DNA of 63,873 nt, filler included. It is 10 parts of 10 records of this genome, joined end to end, with 100 filler letters (N's around TTAATTAATTAA, not from the genome) between each part and the next. Parts side by side here need not be neighbours in the genome. Positions count along the whole stretch, not along the records: positions 32,749 to 37,098 come from SRR20825010_4676; 9 more parts are not named here. One strand, 5' to 3'. The notes below the pieces were generated by a model. It was not told where the DNA came from. It saw nothing but the letters and a program-made list of their open reading frames with translations, and searched no databases. Below are positions 4,169-60,688 of the stretch, piece by piece. Made by a program: the position numbers and the translations under genes. Each line of letters opens with the position of its first letter. Positions within the stretch are counted from its first letter, which is position 1.

Positions 4169-4268
4169 NNNNNNNNNNNNNNNNNNNNNNNNNNNNNNNN
4201 NNNNNNNNNNNNTTAATTAATTAANNNNNNNNNNNNNNNNNNNNNNNNNNNNNNNNNNNNNNNNNNNN
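4169..4268. other. Artificial contig spacer N44-TTAATTAATTAA-N44. Identical spacers at 21541-21640, 25881-25980, 32649-32748, 37099-37198, 45522-45621, 49741-49840, 56278-56377, 60589-60688
   Basis: Identical 100-nt linker with stops in all six frames; genes are truncated at the spacers and gene context changes across them. Confidence 0.98.
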
Positions 4269-21540: not shown

Positions 21541-21640
21541 NNNNNNNNNNNNNNNNNNNNNNNNNNNNNNNNNNNNNNNNNNNNTTAATTAATTAANNNN
21601 NNNNNNNNNNNNNNNNNNNNNNNNNNNNNNNNNNNNNNNN

Positions 21641-25880: not shown

Positions 25881-25980
25881 NNNNNNNNNNNNNNNNNNNN
25901 NNNNNNNNNNNNNNNNNNNNNNNNTTAATTAATTAANNNNNNNNNNNNNNNNNNNNNNNNNNNNNNNNNNNNNNNNNNNN

Positions 25981-27219: not shown

Positions 27220-28778
27220 TTTGTCGTCCCCCGGCTTACGCCATCCTCGTCCAGATCATCAACCCCGTCAGGACCCGGATCATCGGGCAAGGCCACTGGA
27301 TATTCAATGGTCTCCGCCGCTTCCTCTTCGGCGGCAACACGCTTCAGCGTATCGGCAGGTGCTTCGTCGGGCAGGTCTTCCACAGGCACAGGTGCGGGCA
27401 CGACAGCCACAACATCATCTTCTGTTTCGTAAGACGGTTCGGGTGCTGCCAGCCGCATGCCCGGCACGCGCCATTCCAGCGCGTCGAATTCACCCGTCAC
27501 AGGATTGATCGGCGACCATGTGTAGGAGCGATAGCCCTCGCCCGTCCATGCAGGATCTTCGGGTGCATGCAGCGCACGCGCCAGCCATTCGCGCGCCGAA
27601 CCACGATTGCCGAACTCGCCTTCTTCGATTTCCGCCATCAGCTCGCAGACGCGCTGCGTGGGCCGCTCGACAGCCGCCTCGCCGACAAACACTTCCAACG
27701 CACCGCGCGCCGCCAGCCAGTCCCGCGCGCCGATTGCAGCACGTGCCAGCGCCACACGGCTTTCCACATGATCACGATTGCGACCGGACAGAAGCTGAAA
27801 CCGCTTGAAGCGGTCATAGCCGCTCTCGCCTTGCACCAGCCCCATATAGGCATCGGCAAGTTCGGGATGGGGCGCTTCGGCCCATGCTGTCTCGACAAGC
27901 TTTGCACCTTTACGCACATGGCCCGTCGCGCCCGAAAGACGCGCGGCCAGTGCCACGGCAGGCACGAAATACGGATCAAGCGCCACAGCCTGCATCGCCT
28001 GACGCAAGGCATGTGCATCGGCGCTCTTGCGCGCTTCACCGCTCAGTTGCGCGGCGTCCTGTGCTTCAGCCAGCGCCTGCGCGGTCAGCAGCACTGTGCG
28101 GCGACGACGCGCATCATTGCGGCTCACCTGCTTGGCTTTCAGACTGTCATCCAGTGTGCGCAAGGCCGCACCCCAGTCACTCTGCGCCGCTTCGATTTCG
28201 AACACGGCTTGCGCCGCCCAGCTTGCATTGGGGCGCAGACGGAACGCACGGCGTGCGTAATCCAGCGCCTTTTCGCGGTCGCCCGCGCGACGCGCCTGCA
28301 CGAATAATCCGCGCAATCCCAGAAAGGCTGTTTCCGGTGACGCCAGCATCGCCTCGAAATGTCCGCGCGCTTCGTCCTCATGCCCTTCCAGCTGCGCAGC
28401 CTGTGCGGCCAGCAGCATGGTCAGCGGTGTCTCGTCGAGAAGCTTGCGGGCGCGGCCTGCATAGCGTTTGGCATCCGCCGCATCGCCAGCGGCAACCGCC
28501 ACCATGCCGCGCGACAATGCCAGAAACCCGCGCTTGCTCCGCCGCACATCGAGATAATGCGAAACACTGGCCGGCGTGCGCACCACGCCGCTTGCCATGC
28601 GCCACACCAGCAACACGATAGCCGCCAGCACGACAAGCATGCCGAGCCCCACGACAAAACTCGTGCGCATCTCATAGCCGCGCCAATGCAGCACCAGATC
28701 GCCGGGATTATCAGCAAGCCAGACGCCAAGCGCGGCCAGCACCGCCATGATCGCAAATGTGTAAAGCGCGCGCAGCAT
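27213..28778 (-). CDS. hemY: HemY-domain TPR membrane protein
   Basis: WLADNPG N-terminus, LLAAQAAQ, FLGLRGL, PHPELA, DPAW...WSPINPVTG; position after hemC-hemD-COG4223. Confidence 0.88.
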   Translation of the reverse strand: MLRALYTFAIMAVLAALGVWLADNPGDLVLHWRGYEMRTSFVVGLGMLVVLAAIVLLVWRMASGVVRTPASVSHYLDVRRSKRGFLALSRGMVAVAAGDAADAKRYAGRARKLLDETPLTMLLAAQAAQLEGHEDEARGHFEAMLASPETAFLGLRGLFVQARRAGDREKALDYARRAFRLRPNASWAAQAVFEIEAAQSDWGAALRTLDDSLKAKQVSRNDARRRRTVLLTAQALAEAQDAAQLSGEARKSADAHALRQAMQAVALDPYFVPAVALAARLSGATGHVRKGAKLVETAWAEAPHPELADAYMGLVQGESGYDRFKRFQLLSGRNRDHVESRVALARAAIGARDWLAARGALEVFVGEAAVERPTQRVCELMAEIEEGEFGNRGSAREWLARALHAPEDPAWTGEGYRSYTWSPINPVTGEFDALEWRVPGMRLAAPEPSYETEDDVVAVVPAPVPVEDLPDEAPADTLKRVAAEEEAAETIEYPVALPDDPGPDGVDDLDEDGVSRGTTKW

Positions 28779-30007
28779 CAGTTATTGGCTCCCGCGGCAA
28801 GACGCTTGGTCACATTGGCCGTCAGTCCGGCCAGAAGATCGTCAGTTGTCACACGGGCAGTCACTTGTGCGAGCCATGGCGCTGCGGCCTCAGCCGCCGG
28901 TCCTTGCAGAGCTTTGCCCTCGGCCAGTGCCGCCGAAAGATCACCGCGCTTCACGCGCTCTTCCATCCGCGCCAAAACAGCGTCTGTGTCTTCACCGACA
29001 ATTTCGCCGGTGCGGCGCAGCGTCACCATCTTGCGGGCGTTGGATAAAAACCGCTGCCACAGACTGTCATCGCGTGCGGCGCGTTCGGCATCCATCACAT
29101 CGCGCACCACTTGCGGAAATTGCGCTTCCAAAGTGCTTGCCGTCGGCACGCCGTCGGCTGCCACTGTTTTCAATTCGGCAAGCTCGGCTTCTTCAGGCAG
29201 AAATTGCGCCACCACATCAAGCTCGCGGGCAAAAGGTTCAGCCTTGGTTGCCGCGCGCGACAGGTTCGACAGCGCCAGCCCCAGCGCGGCACGTGCCGCC
29301 GCATCGGGGTCATCCTTCTTGGCTTCTAGTGCGGCCACCCGCGTATCAAGTGCAGTGAGGCGCGGTGCCAAAGTCTCGACACCCGTGTTCAGCACTTTGA
29401 CCAGCGTTTCCAGCCGCTCGATCTGTTCCACAATATCGGCAGGCGGCATGGCCGCGGCCAATTCTTCAATCCGCTTGGCGCTTTGCCCAGCCTGCGTTCC
29501 CGCATCAGCCAATGTCGATTTCAGCTTCGCCGCTTCGCTTTCCAGCGCGTCGATCCTTGCACCCAGCACAGACGCGCTATCGGCGCTTGCGGTGGCACTT
29601 GCCAGATCAGCCTGCATCGCAGCCAGCGCATCGGCGCGGGCAGCATCATTCGTCTCGACTTCAGCCACACGCAACCGGATCGTCTCCAGCGCCAACTGGT
29701 CGCGGTCGCCCTTGTTGATGTAACCACCGGCATAAAGCCCGCCGCCCACCGCGATCGCGCCGGCAAGGCCAGCCATCAGCGCAACGCCGTAAAGCCCCGC
29801 GCCCCCACCGACCGATCCGCCCGCCTTGGGCGCAGCGTCAGGTTTTGCATCCTTGGATTTCGTGTCGCTTTCCGGCTCTGCCTTGGCGTCGATCACCGGC
29901 GGCTCCTGACGCGAAGATTTGGCAGATGGGCCATTGCGTTCGGGTTGCAAAAGCTCAGCCTCGGGTGTCGTGGCAGTATTTTCGCTTTTGTCATTGGGAT
30001 CGCTCAT
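28778..30007 (-). CDS. COG4223 mitofilin (Mic60)-like inner membrane protein
   Basis: Single TM, long coiled coil, C-terminal PFAREL...GVPT...LARME..V.RGDL.AA; canonical position between hemD and hemY. Confidence 0.8.
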   Translation of the reverse strand: MSDPNDKSENTATTPEAELLQPERNGPSAKSSRQEPPVIDAKAEPESDTKSKDAKPDAAPKAGGSVGGGAGLYGVALMAGLAGAIAVGGGLYAGGYINKGDRDQLALETIRLRVAEVETNDAARADALAAMQADLASATASADSASVLGARIDALESEAAKLKSTLADAGTQAGQSAKRIEELAAAMPPADIVEQIERLETLVKVLNTGVETLAPRLTALDTRVAALEAKKDDPDAAARAALGLALSNLSRAATKAEPFARELDVVAQFLPEEAELAELKTVAADGVPTASTLEAQFPQVVRDVMDAERAARDDSLWQRFLSNARKMVTLRRTGEIVGEDTDAVLARMEERVKRGDLSAALAEGKALQGPAAEAAAPWLAQVTARVTTDDLLAGLTANVTKRLAAGANN

Positions 30008-30165: not shown

Positions 30166-30891
30166 TTACCCCCGCCCGATCAGGGCCAGCATATCGTCCT
30201 GTGTCGGCAGTCTCGCGACATGAATAGCGGCAAATGGCAGTCCGGCGAGCTTATCTGCCACCGCATCGGACAGACAAAACGCCTGCACCGCCCCCAAAGC
30301 GGCCTCATATCCCGCCTCACGCACCAGCCGCACAAAAGTCTCTGCCGTGCGTGGCGAATAAAGCAGCACCCCGTCTGCCTCATCCGCGCCCAGCGCCGCT
30401 TGCGCCGCTTCGGGCAGACCATCAGGCACAATCGCCTCGTAAAGCACCGCCCGCTCCACCGAAAAGCCTTCAGCCTCCAGCGCCCCTTTCAGGTCGCCCG
30501 CCACCACGCTGCCCGCCACATGCAGCAAGGGTCCGGCGGCATGGTCAAGCCTCTCGCGCACCAAAGCAGCCAGCGAGACAACATCGCCACCGGCTTCCCC
30601 GACACTGCGAAAGCCCGCCTCACGTGCCGCCTCGGCACTCGCCGAACCGACCGCCAGCACAGGCAAATCGCGCGGCAAAGGACGCGCCCGCCGGTTTTCA
30701 TGCGCCAGCAAGGCGCGAACACCATTGGCACTCGTCACCAGCAGTGCCTGCCACGCAAGATCGGGCAGCGCGATATTCTCTAAAAAACGGATATCCAGCA
30801 GCGGCGCTGCAATCACTTCATGACCCAGGCTTTCAAGCGCTGTTGCCAGCGCCGCCTGATCCTCCAGCGGTCGTGTCACAATCAACCGCAT
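30166..30891 (-). CDS. hemD: Uroporphyrinogen-III synthase
   Basis: LIVTRP, TSANGV, AVG..SA, LYSPRTA. Confidence 0.9.
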   Translation of the reverse strand: MRLIVTRPLEDQAALATALESLGHEVIAAPLLDIRFLENIALPDLAWQALLVTSANGVRALLAHENRRARPLPRDLPVLAVGSASAEAAREAGFRSVGEAGGDVVSLAALVRERLDHAAGPLLHVAGSVVAGDLKGALEAEGFSVERAVLYEAIVPDGLPEAAQAALGADEADGVLLYSPRTAETFVRLVREAGYEAALGAVQAFCLSDAVADKLAGLPFAAIHVARLPTQDDMLALIGRG

Positions 30892-30898
30892 GGCCTTG

Positions 30899-31825
30899 TC
30901 AGCTTTCGGTGAAAAATTGCGGACCCGCACGCGACTTCAATTCCTCGCCTGCATCAATGCCCATGGCTATTGCATCTTTTGCCAGCCCGTCGCGCGATGT
31001 CTCCAGCACTTCCTTGCCATCCGGCGTCAGGATCATGCCACGTAGATTCATCCGCTTGCCGGAAATTTCCGCCAGCGCCGCAATCGGTGTGCGGCACGAA
31101 CCATCCAGCACTTTCAGCATGGCGCGCTCGGCATCGATCCGCAGCCCGCTTTCGGCGTGATGGAATGTTGCGAGAAGCCTTGCCGCTTCCTCGTCGCCCG
31201 CGCGCCGCTCCACACCGATCGCACCTTGCGCAACGGCAGGCAGCATTTCATCGGGTGACAATGGGGCCGTCGCCTCGGCAATCAGATCAAGCCGCGTCAG
31301 CCCGGCCATGGCGAGCATGGTCGCATCGGCCACACCATCGGCAAGCTTCTTCAGCCGCGTCTGCACATTGCCGCGAAAGGGCACAATCGTCACATCGGGT
31401 CGCTTGGCCAGAACCTGCGCCCCGCGCCGCAGCGACGAGGTGCCCACAATTGCATTTTTCGGCAACTCGGCCAGCGACGCACCTTTGGTGGACAAAAATG
31501 CGTCCCGCGGGTCTTCGCGTTCCAGAATGCAGTCGATCAGCAACCCGTCAGGCAGCACGGTCGGCATGTCCTTCATCGAATGGACCGCCAGATCAATCCC
31601 GCCATTATGCAAAGCCTCTTCAAGCTCGGCGGTAAAAAGCCCCTTGCCACCGATTTCCGACAAGTTGCGATCCAGCACAATATCGCCCTGCGTCTTGAAA
31701 ATGACGATCTCGGTCACATCTTCCACAGGCGCCCCCAGCGCCTTAGCCAGTTCGGCTGCCACCATATGGGCTTGAACAAGGGCGAGTTTGGAACCGCGTG
31801 TGCCGATGCGGAAGCGACGTTGCAT
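30899..31825 (-). CDS. hemC: Hydroxymethylbilane synthase
   Basis: IGTRGSKLAL, GGKGLFT, AVHSMKD, GTSSLRR, RGNVQTR, LDGSCRTPIA. Confidence 0.97.
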   Translation of the reverse strand: MQRRFRIGTRGSKLALVQAHMVAAELAKALGAPVEDVTEIVIFKTQGDIVLDRNLSEIGGKGLFTAELEEALHNGGIDLAVHSMKDMPTVLPDGLLIDCILEREDPRDAFLSTKGASLAELPKNAIVGTSSLRRGAQVLAKRPDVTIVPFRGNVQTRLKKLADGVADATMLAMAGLTRLDLIAEATAPLSPDEMLPAVAQGAIGVERRAGDEEAARLLATFHHAESGLRIDAERAMLKVLDGSCRTPIAALAEISGKRMNLRGMILTPDGKEVLETSRDGLAKDAIAMGIDAGEELKSRAGPQFFTES

Positions 31826-31962
31826 GGGGCGTCTCTCAGGTGTAAGGCGAAGCAAAATAAGGCTATGAATGGGTCTTATAGACCATTGAGCCCGCCAGCG
31901 AACCCCCTGCCACGCGCCTGTGACACTTCAAGCAGCCGCCCCAACCGAGTTTCAGATCGCCC

Positions 31963-32648: not shown

Positions 32649-32748
32649 NNNNNNNNNNNNNNNNNNNNNNNNNNNNNNNNNNNNNNNNNNNNTTAATTAA
32701 TTAANNNNNNNNNNNNNNNNNNNNNNNNNNNNNNNNNNNNNNNNNNNN

Positions 32749-34357
32749 AATAAGAGGGGTTAAGGACCATCATCGCGCCGACAAACAGCCCCAGCAAGGC
32801 CAGCGGAACGAGCAGGATGCGCAGGCTCCAGTGCAGGCGCGCACGCAGCCAGTTGCCCGCCCGGTGGACATTGCGCGAAAACCGCCCCGACACGCCGCCC
32901 ATGACCGGCAGATAGATCAATGCCACCACCAGCGACGCCAGCAGGACAAAGATCAGTGTGACCGGCAACATCCCCATGAATTCACCCGCGACGCCGGGCC
33001 AGAACAGCATCGGCAAAAAGGCACAAAGCGTGGTCGCTGTCGACGAGACCACCGGCCAGAACATCCGGTGGGCCGCCTCGACATAGGCATGCATTGGGCC
33101 GGTGCCTTCTGAGATGCGTTTGTCCGCGTATTCGACCACCACAACAGCACTGTCGACCAGCATGCCCACCGCTAGAATGAGGCCGAACATCACGATGTTG
33201 GAAATCGTCACGCCCATCAGCGCCAACAACACGAAACACAGCATGAAGCTGGTCGGAATGGCAAAGCCCACCAACAGGGCAGGGCGCAGACCAAGTGAGG
33301 CAAGTACAACGATCATCACCAGTGCAATGGCGGTCAGAACCGATCCCTCCAGCTGGCCCACCATGCTGGCGACCTGTCGGCTTTGGTCGTTGGAGGTTCC
33401 CACGTCCAGCACGGCGCGCAACTCTGGCGGCCAGTTTTCCTGCGCCGTATCGATCACCTCTTGCACTTGCGTCACGGTGTCGATGATGTTGAAGCCCTTC
33501 CGCTTGACCACCTGCAACGCAACCGTCTGGTCGCCATTGAACCGCGCGGTGCCCTTGCGGTCCTCAAAGGTCAGGTTGATCGTGGCAAGCTCGCCCAGGG
33601 TGACCACCCGGTCGCCGTTGACCTTGACCGGCAGATCATAAACGTCGCGCGGCTCGTCAAAGCTGGACGGGATTTTGACTGAAAAGGTGCCGTTGTCCGT
33701 CTCGACCTCGCCTGCCGCAATCAACTGGTTGTTGTTCTGAACCACGCGGATCAGCTCATCGGCGGTGACGTTGTAGCTTTCCAGCCGCAGCGGGTCGATC
33801 ACCACCTCCAGCATTTCGTCGCGGCTGCCGGCAATACCGGCCTCCAGCACGGAATCCAGCCCCTCGACGCGGTCTTGCAGGTCTTTGGCCACCTGGGTCA
33901 GCGTGCGTTCTGGCACTGGACCAGACAGGTTGACGATCAGGATCGGGAATTCGGAAAAGTTGATTTCGTTGATCGAGTATTTCTCGGCCCCGACGGGAAA
34001 GCTCCCCTCGGCGTTGTTCATCCCGTCGCGGACGTCGGCGATGATCTTTGTCTTGTCCCAACCAAATTCGAACTCCAGCGCCAGTCCGGCATACCCTTCG
34101 GCTGCCGTGGCGGTCATGGCCTTCAACCCGTCAAGATCGGACAGCTCCGTTTCCATCGGTTTGACCAACAGCTTTTCCGCGTCCGTGGCGGAAATGCCGG
34201 GAAAGGGAACCGAGACGAACAGCGCCGGGATCTCGATGTCGGGCTCGCCTTCCTTGGGCAAGGACAGATAGGCGTATGTCCCTGCCACAAGACCCAGAAT
34301 GATAAAGGCGATGATCATTCGGGCGCGTTCTGCGGCCCAGTCGATGATGCCGGTCAT
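32749..34357 (-). CDS. RND efflux transporter permease subunit (3' truncated)
   Basis: LPKEGEPDIEIP, PMETEL, GMLVDSAVVVVE, STATTLCAFLP, AcrB-like topology. Confidence 0.92.
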
Positions 34358-37071
34358 TGCAGCACGTCCTCATAGCTTGGGACGACGCGCACGCCATTGG
34401 TGACGTATTCCTGACCCACGGTGATCACGTTGATTTCGTCCGGCAGCCCGGTGATCCAGACGCCCTCGCGGGTGTCACGCAGGATAGAGATGTCCATCCA
34501 CTGGACGCTGTCATCCGCCGTCACGGTTCGCACCCCCAGCTTGCCCTCATCGTTCAGGGTCAGCGTGGATTGCGCCAGAAGGTGCGCCTTTGCCCCCTCT
34601 GCCTCGATGGCGATTTCGGCGGTTTCACCGTCGCGGATTGACAGATCGGCATTTTCTACCAACAGCTCGACAGCAAAGGTGCGGGTCGTGGGATCGGCAC
34701 TGCGTGAGACAAAACTGACCTTGCCCTCGACTGTCCGTCCGTTAGTCAGACGCGCGCCCGCCAGAGCGCCCGGCTTGACGCGGGCAACGGTGGTTTCGGG
34801 AACGTAGCCCACAAACTTCATTGGGTTGATCTGGATGACCGTGGCACAGGCCGACCCCGGCTGCATCAGCGCGCCCAGTTCCGCCGTGTCGGTTTCCAGC
34901 AACCCGGCAAAGGGCGCGTGGATCTTGAGACGCTCGATTTCCTTGCGCGCGGCGGCGACACCGGCCTCGGCGGACTGTATCGCGGCCAGCGCGCTTTCGC
35001 CGCCAGTTCGGGCGGATTGCACACCTGCCTCGGCCCCCTCGAGTTGCGACTTGGCAGCGATCACCGCAGCCTTTGCCCCCTCAACCCCCGACAAGGCCGA
35101 GGATACAGCGGCCTTTGCACCCTGAAGCTGGCTCTCGGCGGTCTGGATGCCGGCAAGCGCGTTCTGGATCTGGCTTTCGGCGGCCTGAACCCCGGCTTTG
35201 GCGGTTTCGATCTGGCTGCGCGCAGTAGTGACTCCGGCCTCTGCGTTGCGGATCTGGGTTTGCGCCGATTGGATCTGCGCCTTGGCCGAAACGATCTGCC
35301 CGCGCGCGGTTTGGACCCCGGCAGTGGCATTTCGGATCTGGCTCTTGGCGGACTGAATGGCGGCACGCGCAGTCTCCAGCTGGCTAGTGCCGGTTTTCAC
35401 CCCTGCCAAGGCGTTCTGGATCTGGCTTTCGGCGGCCTTGATTCCGGCCTTGGCCGTCTGGACCTGACTGCGCGCGGCCTGAACCCCGGCGCGGGCGTTG
35501 ACGATCTGCGCCTCGGCCGTCTGGATGCCGGCCTTGGCGTTTTCGATTTGAGTCTTGGCCGATTGCACGCCGGCCTTGGCGTTGTTGATCTGGCTTTCGG
35601 CAGAGCGGATCGCCGCAAGTGCCGTCTGCACTGCGCCGCGCGCGGCCTCGACCCCGGCGCGCGCGCCTTCAAGTTGAGATTTCGCCGCCTCGATTGCGGT
35701 GGCCGCTGTCTTGAGGCCCGCCAATGCAGTTTGTTCCTGCGCCTTGGCCGACTCAAAGGCCGCCTGCGAACCCGCCAGACGCGTCTGGGCGGCAAAGCCG
35801 TCGCGGGCCAGTTCCTCAGAGGCGCGCAGGGTGATTTCGGCCTCGTTGATGCGGGCGCGGGCCTCTGTCAGACGGGCCTCGGACGCGGGCACCTGTGCCA
35901 AGGCCTCTGCCAGACGCGCCTCGGCGGCGGGCACCTGTGCCAGCGCCTCCTTGAGGCGGGCCTCGGAGGCGGGCAGTTGCGCCTTGGCTTCTGCCAGTCG
36001 GGCCTGTGCCTCGGGGACGCGACTTTCCGCCTCTTCCAGACGGGCAGCGGCCTCGGGAACGCGCGCCTTGGCTTCTGCCAGCCGCGCTTCGGCTTCTGGA
36101 ACGCGGGACAGTGCCTCTTCAAGGCGGGCTTCGGCCTCAGGCAACTTGGCTTTGGCCTCTGCCAGACGCGCCTCGGATTCAGGGACACGGGCGCGCGCCT
36201 CTGCCAGCCGCGCCTCGGCGGCGGGCACACCCGCCTCTGCCTCTGCCAGCCGCGCTTCGGCCTCGGGGACACGGGCCAGCGCCTCTTGCAGGCGAGCCTC
36301 GGATTCGGGCAGCTTGGCTTCGGCCTCGGCGATGCGCGCCTCGGCCTCGGGGATGCGGGCCAACGCTTCCTCAAGGCGGGCTTGCGCCTCGGGGACTTTG
36401 GCCTTGGCCTCGGCCAGACGGGCCTCGGATTCGGGGATTCGTGCCTTGGCCTCGATCAGGCGCGCTTCGGCGGCGGGAACACCGGCGCGGGCCTCAGCCA
36501 GCTGCGCCTCGGCGGCGGGCACAGCGGCTTCTGCCTCAAGGATGCGGGCCTTGGCGGCGGGCACCTGCGCCTTGGCTTCGGCCAGCCGGGCGTTCGCTTC
36601 GGGGAGGCGGGCATTTGCCTCGGCCAATCGGGCCATCGCCTCTTGCAAGGACACATCGCGGGTGCCGGGGTCAATCTCGCACAGCAATTGACCTGCTTCG
36701 ACCAGCGCGCCTTTGCGCAGCGGCTCCGACACGATCTTGCCGTTGGTTTCGGCGCGGACCTCGACCTGGCGGACGGCTTCTGTCTCACCGCGCAGGATAA
36801 CGGCACTGTCGACCACCTGCGCGGTCGAGTGGCGCGCCATCACCCGGACCGCCCCTAGCAGGAGGGCACTATCTTCGGCACTCTCTGGCACTGGGGACGG
36901 GGCTGGGACGGGATCGGAGGTTGCAGGGTTTGGGTCTGCGGCACCCGGCTCACCTGCCAGTGCGGCTGGCGCAACCGCGCGGGCGAACCCGATCAGCCGG
37001 TCCCTCTCCAACACGACGGCATACAGCACCGCAGCAACGACGCAGGCCGTCAGGATCGACATGATGCGCAT
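34354..37071 (-). CDS. RND periplasmic adaptor (membrane fusion protein) with a giant repeat-expanded alpha-hairpin
   Basis: N-terminal TM; lipoyl halves VRAETNG..KGALVEAGQLLCEID and IHAPFAG; beta-barrel GKVSFVSRSADPTTRTF; about 570 aa of heptad repeats between the lipoyl halves; ATGA overlap with the permease. Confidence 0.9.
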   Translation of the reverse strand: MRIMSILTACVVAAVLYAVVLERDRLIGFARAVAPAALAGEPGAADPNPATSDPVPAPSPVPESAEDSALLLGAVRVMARHSTAQVVDSAVILRGETEAVRQVEVRAETNGKIVSEPLRKGALVEAGQLLCEIDPGTRDVSLQEAMARLAEANARLPEANARLAEAKAQVPAAKARILEAEAAVPAAEAQLAEARAGVPAAEARLIEAKARIPESEARLAEAKAKVPEAQARLEEALARIPEAEARIAEAEAKLPESEARLQEALARVPEAEARLAEAEAGVPAAEARLAEARARVPESEARLAEAKAKLPEAEARLEEALSRVPEAEARLAEAKARVPEAAARLEEAESRVPEAQARLAEAKAQLPASEARLKEALAQVPAAEARLAEALAQVPASEARLTEARARINEAEITLRASEELARDGFAAQTRLAGSQAAFESAKAQEQTALAGLKTAATAIEAAKSQLEGARAGVEAARGAVQTALAAIRSAESQINNAKAGVQSAKTQIENAKAGIQTAEAQIVNARAGVQAARSQVQTAKAGIKAAESQIQNALAGVKTGTSQLETARAAIQSAKSQIRNATAGVQTARGQIVSAKAQIQSAQTQIRNAEAGVTTARSQIETAKAGVQAAESQIQNALAGIQTAESQLQGAKAAVSSALSGVEGAKAAVIAAKSQLEGAEAGVQSARTGGESALAAIQSAEAGVAAARKEIERLKIHAPFAGLLETDTAELGALMQPGSACATVIQINPMKFVGYVPETTVARVKPGALAGARLTNGRTVEGKVSFVSRSADPTTRTFAVELLVENADLSIRDGETAEIAIEAEGAKAHLLAQSTLTLNDEGKLGVRTVTADDSVQWMDISILRDTREGVWITGLPDEINVITVGQEYVTNGVRVVPSYEDVLQ
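34945..35721 (-). repeat. Descending-arm coding repeats: 17 x 14 aa plus 3 heptads (consensus AGVQxAxSQIxNAK)
   Basis: Counted from the translation, aa 451-709. Confidence 0.85.
35848..36603 (-). repeat. Ascending-arm coding repeats: 18 x 14 aa (42 nt; consensus PEAEARLAEAKARV)
   Basis: Counted from the translation, aa 157-408, with a Pro every 14 residues. Confidence 0.92.
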
Positions 37072-37247
37072 TTTCTTGGTCCCCCCGATCCGCGAGGCNN
37101 NNNNNNNNNNNNNNNNNNNNNNNNNNNNNNNNNNNNNNNNNNTTAATTAATTAANNNNNNNNNNNNNNNNNNNNNNNNNNNNNNNNNNNNNNNNNNNNGC
37201 AGTGGAAGATCATCATGGAGATGGCGGATACGCCGCTCTGAGGCCGG

Positions 37248-45521: not shown

Positions 45522-45621
45522 NNNNNNNNNNNNNNNNNNNNNNNNNNNNNNNNNNNNNNNNNNNNTTAATTAATTAANNNNNNNNNNNNNNNNNNNNNNN
45601 NNNNNNNNNNNNNNNNNNNNN

Positions 45622-49740: not shown

Positions 49741-49840
49741 NNNNNNNNNNNNNNNNNNNNNNNNNNNNNNNNNNNNNNNNNNNNTTAATTAATTAANNNN
49801 NNNNNNNNNNNNNNNNNNNNNNNNNNNNNNNNNNNNNNNN

Positions 49841-56209: not shown

Positions 56210-56377
56210 CAAAAGTTTGAATCGCAAGGAGGGCCGAGAAGCTCTTCCGGGACCGTAAAAAACAGGGATGTTTTTTANNNNNNNNNNNNNNNNNNNNNNN
56301 NNNNNNNNNNNNNNNNNNNNNTTAATTAATTAANNNNNNNNNNNNNNNNNNNNNNNNNNNNNNNNNNNNNNNNNNNN

Positions 56378-60588: not shown

Positions 60589-60688
60589 NNNNNNNNNNNN
60601 NNNNNNNNNNNNNNNNNNNNNNNNNNNNNNNNTTAATTAATTAANNNNNNNNNNNNNNNNNNNNNNNNNNNNNNNNNNNNNNNNNNNN

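Follow-up and report, generated by a model that had tools for sequence, protein, structure and literature searches.

The window analysed here is a stretch of 63,873 nucleotides, filler included, made up of 10 contigs linked by nine N44-TTAATTAATTAA-N44 joiners (4169-4268, 21541-21640, 25881-25980, 32649-32748, 37099-37198, 45522-45621, 49741-49840, 56278-56377 and 60589-60688), across which gene order is artificial. On one of these contigs (32749..37098, 4350 bp) lies the gene for a membrane fusion protein, or periplasmic adaptor, here designated P0001. It occupies 34354..37071 on the minus strand, stop codon included, and begins with an ATG 27 nt from the contig end. Since this contig lies between joiners, the hemC, hemD, tsaD and DUF2306 genes found beyond them are not usable as neighbours. 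The TGA stop codon of the adaptor gene overlaps (ATGA) the ATG of a downstream open reading frame (ORF), 32693..34357 on the minus strand. The portion of this ORF that belongs to the contig (32749..34357, minus strand) is the 5' part of a resistance-nodulation-division (RND) permease gene. It matches positions 10-488 of the 1021 in the Pfam ACR_tran profile (E 9e-88) and runs off the contig, with Ns starting at 32748, so that the product is broken off after ~540 amino acids (aa). An earlier note on this DNA had described the adaptor gene as ATGA-coupled to an RND permease; the overlap and the profile match bear this out, while the permease gene itself is incomplete in the window.

Domains and repeats of the adaptor

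P0001 is an AcrA/MexA-type adaptor with an ordinary domain set and a hugely expanded helical hairpin. The ORF of 905 aa that the earlier note had assigned to a membrane fusion protein exists, and the ORF list, the translation, TIGR01730, Pfam, Foldseek and an AlphaFold2 model are in agreement on its identity and domains. TIGR01730 (RND_mfp) matches in two stretches separated by the hairpin (132.3 bits, cut-off 94.9), and Pfam recognises HlyD_D23 at aa 704-816 (56.1 bits, cut-off 30, E 4e-15) and HlyD_3 at aa 716-809 (47.5 bits, cut-off 22.2). The NCBIfam models for EmrA (TIGR00998, 53.5 of 390.8 bits), HlyD (TIGR01843, 40.4 of 208.65 bits) and CzcB (TIGR00999, 59.9 of 319.3 bits) stay below their cut-offs. 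The best Foldseek matches of the model are AcrA, MexA and TMexC (E 7e-11 to 5e-10, AcrA 7e-11). VIA-align likewise returns a MacA-MexA chimera (Z 15.4) and AcrA 2f1m (Z 14.4, root-mean-square deviation (rmsd) 2.6 Å over 224 residues).

The model has a mean predicted local distance difference test score (pLDDT) of 80.8 and places the domains as follows, all on the minus strand. A hydrophobic N-terminal transmembrane (TM) anchor helix (aa 3-21; 37009..37065) precedes a Pro/Ala-rich, disordered linker (aa 33-70; 36862..36975), where alignment occupancy is low and pLDDT is ~40 over residues 32-68. Cys10 is not conserved in the family consensus, so the N-terminus is likelier to be a signal anchor than a lipobox. 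The N-terminal strands of the membrane-proximal, beta-barrel and first lipoyl-half domains follow (aa 71-136; 36664..36861; model strands 75-133). The second lipoyl half, beta-barrel and membrane-proximal domain make up the C-terminus (aa 716-905; 34357..34926). The beta domains at 75-133 and 716-900 both reach pLDDT ~95, and the intervening hairpin is modelled as helices 138-423 and 429-713. A biotinyl/lipoyl domain (2d5d) aligns across model residues 102..746 (70 aligned, rmsd 2.2 Å, Z 10.7), showing that the lipoyl domain is split. The C-terminal part aligns with AcrA, MexA and MacA, its strands 817-900 falling on the membrane-proximal region of AcrA and MacA.

The ascending hairpin helix (aa 137-423; 35803..36663), delimited by its Pro spacing, unit profile, helical model and low substitution ratio (see below), contains 18 Pro-initiated 14-mers (aa 157-408; 35848-36603), as had been claimed. 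The prolines stand at 157, 171 ... 395 with a strict spacing of 14 aa. The units share the consensus P-E-A-E-A-R-L-A-E-A-x-A-R-V (P1 18/18, A5 18/18, R6 17/18, L7 16/18, E9 18/18, A10 18/18, A12 16/18, V/I/L14). The descending helix (aa 429-715; 34927..35787) is also helical in the model and runs in a single unbroken 14-residue register of 20 frames (aa 431-710). Its consensus is G/A-V/I-Q-S/T-A-x-S-Q-I-E-N-A-x-A (G1 11/20, V/I2 18/20, A5 18/20, A12 20/20, A14 18/20). This arm had previously been read as 17 14-mers plus extra heptads; the 14-mer repeat holds, but the count and the extra heptads give way to the single register.

Arm lengths were measured between three conserved anchors, P135, G425 and P720 in P0001 numbering. 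The ascending arm (P135-G425) is 290 aa and the descending arm (G425-P720) 295 aa, in keeping with the matched arms of ~285 aa first estimated. The units have diverged from one another, as the earlier reading had it: mean nucleotide identity is 0.66 among ascending and 0.51 among descending units, and no exact repeat in the gene exceeds 28 nt. Between ascending and descending units the mean identity is 0.17, and on this sequence evidence there is no relationship between the two sets. Heptads in both arms combine a hydrophobic position and an Ala position with a second stripe of small residues, a pattern that would be compatible with helix packing on two sides. The net charge is -12 for the ascending and +9 for the descending arm. 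A block of six units may have been duplicated in both arms, as hinted by the pairs 213/297 and 227/311 (ascending) and 543/627 (descending), which are no more than suggestive.

The hairpin tip (aa 409-432; 35776..35847) contains R416-ASEEL-ARDGFA, the R..EEL..DGFA reported earlier. A411, L421 and G425 are invariant in the 96 aligned database proteins, and I413, A417, F426 and R431 are conserved in at least 90% of them. By this alignment the tip is the most conserved stretch of the hairpin.

RNA-seq run X17 contains two perfect contigs (342 and 199 nt) that lie inside the adaptor gene, at 35788-36129 and 36869-37067. DNA can occur in such libraries, and the contigs are a weak hint that the gene is transcribed.

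Arm lengths across the family

A word-indexed protein search returned 97 close relatives (E 2.5e-94 or better) of 501-718 aa, every named one from Rhodobacteraceae. A search seeded from the C-terminal domains gave the same relatives and again a maximum of 718 aa, and a whole-protein search of a 50%-representative library found no longer family member. The third match in the representative search, P0123, was rejected as a low-complexity repeat protein of 2412 aa with no relation to the family. A genome scan matched more than 582 stretches, 80 of which were taken for locus analysis; the adaptor genes at these loci extend from ~400 aa to 769 aa (locus L007), then 905 aa. P0001 and its orthologue from Antarctobacter heliothermus DSM 11445 are the longest among the relatives found.

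The two arms vary in lockstep. The descending arm exceeds the ascending arm by exactly 5 aa in all 69 measurable genome loci (the other 11 of the 80 failed the motif search or were truncated) and in 90 of the 96 aligned database proteins. P0029 and P0056, which are N-terminally short and stand outside the 96-row alignment, fit the same difference by their motif positions. The earlier note had proposed a matched expansion of two non-homologous arms and a comparison of arm lengths among orthologues; that comparison finds the arms correlated, not independent.

Ascending arms of 52, 59, 66, 73, 94, 108, 122, 150, 164, 178, 192, 206, 234 and 290 aa were found, orthologues stepping by 7 or 14 aa over a 5.6-fold range (52-290). 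The ascending arm is 52 aa in Ruegeria. It is 290 aa in A. heliothermus versus 164 aa in the sister Mameliella and in a protein named Antarctobacter jejuensis, and it varies within named genera (Pelagimonas 94/164/178, Jannaschia 94/122). On a 69-row tree built from the non-hairpin parts only, exact arm length requires at least 24 changes and the long state (94 or more) at least three switches between short and long, and each change of arm length is mirrored in the opposite arm. Even the short orthologues have a single Pro unit as well as heptads with Gly, which indicates that the units were amplified from the ancestral hairpin.

The A. heliothermus DSM 11445 contig encodes a 905-aa orthologue that is identical to P0001 at 859 of 905 positions (95%), with 0 gaps and 46 scattered substitutions; the adaptor DNA is 89% identical. 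Between the window and this orthologue, at a synonymous divergence (dS) of ~0.42, the ratio of nonsynonymous to synonymous substitution (dN/dS) is 0.059 in the ascending arm, 0.047 in the descending arm and 0.051 in the C-terminal domains, and the 574 repeat codons contain 0 indels. Judged by these substitution patterns, both arms are under purifying selection and the hairpin is a constrained part of the protein. Across the sequences compared, arm length is stable within one lineage and labile between lineages, and what appears clearly to be selected is the matching of the arms to each other, not one absolute length.

The partner pump

An RND gene lies downstream of the adaptor gene in 80/80 loci. 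Divergently upstream is a TPR_21 (yfgM-like) gene in 78/80, and bamB and der stand beside the adaptor in 76/80 and 70/80 loci, respectively. In the locus of the 95%-identical orthologue (L001), this TPR_21 (yfgM-like)-bamB-der cluster spans L001:5876-9642, divergent from the adaptor-RND pair, and it holds the same place in 70-78 of the 80 loci. RND identity across genera is 61-86%, above that of BamB (38-82%). Given this conserved synteny and the conservation of the RND protein, the adaptor-RND pair is a vertically inherited core-genome pump and not a mobile resistance cassette, and there is a hint of a housekeeping envelope role rather than drug efflux. In the intergenic region that precedes the orthologue, Rfam, promoter and terminator scans gave no match.

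The full-length RND orthologue of window 32749-34357 is encoded at L001:12715-16536 and comprises 1273 aa. RND proteins of the family are ~1200-1360 aa long (median 1251 in 43 loci, range 1196-1360). Compared with MexK, the L001 protein has extra sequence at ~489-733 and 881-1020, and two additional hydrophobic segments (514-532 and 549-567) lie between the usual TM6 and TM7. It scores well below the NCBIfam multidrug RND cut-offs (420 bits vs 1250). RND length and arm length give a Spearman coefficient of 0.35 (p 0.02, 43/69 loci), which is uncorrected for relatedness, spans a narrow RND range and is not taken as evidence.

Genome-wide comparisons used the genome that contains L001. This genome has three genes for outer-membrane factors (OMFs), of ordinary size (468, 490 and 513 aa) and none linked to the adaptor-RND pair. 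It also encodes seven other adaptors over the TIGR01730 cut-off, in which the model spans 297-386 aa, versus 805 aa in the giant one.

Reach of the hairpin

An alpha-helix rises by ~0.15 nm per residue, and at 290 residues the P0001 hairpin is predicted to be ~43 nm long if straight. The 647-aa orthologue from Mameliella alba (arms 164/169) was folded with AlphaFold2 from an alignment spanning the whole hairpin. Its model has two uninterrupted helices, 129-292 (164 residues) and 294-455 (162 residues), at pLDDT 78-94. The predicted form is a straight rod with the prolines within the helix. Structure prediction, which the earlier note had recommended, thus yields straight uninterrupted helices for the orthologue but a 905-aa model of low confidence mid-hairpin, at matching places in the two arms (252-298 and 556-589). 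Residues 299-547 of the P0001 model superpose on Smc arm fragments (237/237, rmsd 8.5 Å).

We propose, with a probability of roughly 0.6, that the adaptor forms an extended rod and a six-fold tube that reaches a shared TolC-like channel via its conserved tip. With its RND permease (~1250 aa), the adaptor would make up a chromosomal pump conserved across Rhodobacteraceae. Starting from 52/57 aa per arm, which looks ancestral, the adaptor hairpin would have reached 290/295 aa as both helices repeatedly gained two-heptad (14-aa) units, giving an extended two-helix rod of ~43 nm if straight. Six copies would then assemble into a long helical tube. This would extend the duct that leads out of the RND pump, and at its end the tip would meet the channel. 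Selection would act on the matching of the arms and on an intact heptad register. Gain of a unit in one arm would push the conserved tip off the turn, which would account for the lockstep of the arms.

That six copies form a straight 12-helix tube of ~43 nm is a stronger claim, possible but doubtful. At more than three times the length of the EmrA duct, such a tube would surpass every known periplasmic duct, and arithmetic on pump dimensions suggests that the pump would need ~60 nm between the membranes. There would have to be a local, much widened envelope zone around a housekeeping pump, or the adaptor itself would set the local spacing. The members of the family would then form a natural series of tubes, 8 to 43 nm long, that lengthen by two heptads at a time. 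A rod of 43 nm could be housed in a locally wide gap, by tilting or bending, or with slack.

Several points weigh against the extended rod and tube. The hexamer, the tube and the OMF contact of P0001 are put forward by analogy with solved adaptors, and straightness over the full 43 nm is an extrapolation, the 905-aa model being uncertain mid-hairpin. Docking at a fixed distance sits poorly with a conserved tip carried on arms whose length ranges 5.6-fold. The tip of a short orthologue aligns with the RxxxLxxxxxxS tip of TriA, the RLS motif as defined in a passage of PMC3391258. In this alignment the Leu and Ser of the motif are retained in the family, as L421 and S428, and A417 takes the place of the Arg; P0001 itself has A428, and its R416 is one residue out of register with the RLS Arg. 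No OMF gene was found within 10 kb of the pump in 80/80 loci by tblastn with three OMFs of one genome (E 1e-8), a search that divergent OMFs could escape. The earlier note had suggested looking for a cognate OMF; the related genome has three OMF genes, none linked to the pump. Finally, the arms are unequal in six of the 96 proteins (P0002, P0035, P0042, P0053, P0069 and P0081), by an excess of 14, 42 or 70 aa. All six lie on contigs of 2.6-25 kb, five from ENA and one from NCBI, and in five of the proteins the ascending arm, the more repetitive in DNA, is the shorter. They may be misassemblies with collapsed repeats or real one-arm intermediates.

The variation in length raises the question of whether length is constrained at all. 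A pump that works without tip-to-tip OMF docking could let hairpin length drift, with selection only for foldability, that is, matched arms and intact heptads. The 5.6-fold range among orthologues that share synteny and have RND partners 61-86% identical would suit such a pump, as would the lack of a linked OMF in the 80 loci, the missing RLS Arg and the 24 or more length changes on the tree. We nevertheless consider it unlikely. Conservation within the hairpin peaks at the tip, no indel has entered the 574 repeat codons at dS 0.42, dN/dS is as low in the arms as in the globular domains, and a costly, role-less appendage of 570 aa would be expected to shrink.

The earlier note had suggested a molecular ruler. 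On this view an unusually wide periplasm, or additional envelope layers, would dictate the length of the hairpin, and a straight tube would span the membrane gap. The exact preservation of length (0 indels) between two lineages at dS ~0.42, the conserved tip and the extended model are what this would predict. However, the arms of 164 and 290 aa in sister lineages and the variation inside Pelagimonas and Jannaschia speak against a ruler for an absolute distance. A generally widened periplasm, also suggested in that note, fares no better. The seven adaptors of ordinary span in the related genome belong to pumps that a uniformly wide periplasm would strand, and the OMFs of 468-513 aa are likewise ordinary. 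Since ordinary pumps coexist with the giant adaptor, a generally widened periplasm is unlikely, and absolute hairpin length is not set by genome-wide periplasm width. A local wide compartment, for example at a pole or bud, may house the giant adaptor, and a TolC-independent tube, which that note also raised, is conceivable; as a whole, the ruler is improbable. Pfam TolA proved unusable as a proxy for periplasm width, matching 0/5 genomes, with E. coli the sole match among the controls.

The rod might also fold. SMC arms bend back at elbows. A fold-back of the CusB hairpin is described in a section of PMC4446572. A similar elbow in P0001 would turn the hairpin into a four-helix bundle with a reach of about half its contour length, consistent with the matched low-confidence breaks in both arms and with the poor alignment of the whole hairpin to single straight chains (rmsd 32-105 Å). 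We regard this as highly improbable. The breaks coincide with stretches (270-298 and 557-589) where alignment depth is 1, the query only, and the double Gly at 557/561 is not retained in the 95% orthologue (GVKTAIS). The heptad register is unbroken, the M. alba orthologue, for which alignment depth is good, is predicted as two uninterrupted helices, and a single fold-back would aim the conserved tip at the inner membrane.

Inflation of the repeat number by misassembly might be suspected of the longest member found, a repetitive gene on a short contig (4350 bp), but it is vanishingly unlikely, and for practical purposes excluded, because the DSM 11445 isolate assembly and an independent contig agree in length without gaps. 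The latter, a Logan contig from run X9, spans 32987-37098 with 27 differences and 0 gaps, and so shows the repeats at the same length, where the earlier note had called for reads to be mapped across the gene. The divergence of the units (just 51-66% identical in DNA) and the shortness of the longest exact repeat argue in the same direction. A contig of run X2 spans this entire region around the gene but may be the source of the DNA itself and is not counted as independent. Among the runs listed, 16 contain at least half of the sampled words. Three 'joints' in run X11, which skip 670-2445 nt in the manner of deletion variants, were rejected; their sides are only 21-30 nt and they likely come from other organisms or repeats.

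Among known adaptors, P0001 most resembles AcrA, MexA and TriA (TIGR01730), with which it shares the domain order (membrane-proximal, beta-barrel, and split lipoyl with helical hairpin), the best structural matches, translational coupling to an RND permease and, at the family level, the tip Leu and Ser positions. It differs in its arms of 290/295 aa, its TM anchor with disordered linker, its strict Pro-containing 14-aa repeats and the family's Ala in place of the RLS Arg. EmrA of Aquifex aeolicus and HlyD also prolong the duct with a long coiled coil, and adaptors of this type pair with MFS or ABC transporters that have no large periplasmic domain. The EmrA hairpin is given as 127 Å in the highlights of PMC4158417. 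In the sections consulted of a 2026 review (PMC13328181) it is termed 'unusually long', and EmrA is described as lacking a membrane-proximal domain and as having a partner transporter with little periplasmic mass. P0001, by contrast, has a membrane-proximal domain and an RND partner, and its hairpin would measure ~43 nm, if straight, against 12.7 nm. Extension and shortening of adaptor coiled coils by heptad insertions and deletions are noted in part of the 2015 review PMC4446572.

A literature search, with subscription journals and supplements mostly outside its scope, found no adaptor hairpins of 20-43 nm, no Pro-punctuated 14-mers and no account of this Rhodobacteraceae family. Hairpin-length terms had no match in the searched text of a Chem Rev review (PMC8277102), and for envelope or cryo-electron tomography work on Antarctobacter or Mameliella nothing relevant was among the matches listed. 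The 12.7-nm EmrA hairpin is the longest found mentioned in the literature; that of P0001 would be more than three times longer if straight, and the earlier placing of this hairpin well beyond described adaptors holds.

Among solved structures, the M. alba hairpin best matches the PrgA stalk (329 residues, rmsd 5.9 Å, Z 19.7), and it superposes on a chemoreceptor hairpin over 309/309 residues (rmsd 5.5 Å). The likeness of the family hairpins to PrgA, chemoreceptor and SMC hairpins extends to coiled-coil geometry and composition only, as these proteins have no globular domains in common with P0001 and act in another cellular setting. The NCBIfam SEC10/PgrA surface-exclusion domain also matches P0001 residues 242-336 (79 bits, cut-off 70). 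We read both the domain match and the PrgA-stalk likeness as convergence of long antiparallel coiled coils. The Lpp spacer, the PqiB/LetB conduits and the MmpL4/5 coiled-coil stalk are helical elements whose length relates to envelope distance. They belong to other protein families, and for P0001 the paralogues in the L001 genome argue against a global relation between length and periplasm width.

Current tripartite-pump models assume that transporter and outer-membrane channel lie a fixed distance apart and that the adaptor hairpin matches this gap. One conserved orthologous pump with hairpins of ~8 to ~43 nm and the same tip would mean that the gap is not fixed, or that the hairpin has a role other than bridging it. 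Culturable, non-pathogenic marine bacteria provide a natural length series (Ruegeria 52, Mameliella 164 and Antarctobacter heliothermus 290 aa per arm), which makes the relation of adaptor length to pump assembly and periplasm width directly testable. In this family, moreover, two non-homologous repeat arrays within a single gene have co-evolved, a clean example of its kind, and the hairpins might serve as a scaffold for building helical rods or tubes of defined length.

On a separate contig of the window, a gene at 28778-30007 (minus strand) encodes a protein of 409 aa whose C-terminal domain matches Mitofilin (Mic60; Pfam E 9.5e-11). It adjoins hemD (30166-30930) and hemC (30899-31855), a known alphaproteobacterial arrangement.

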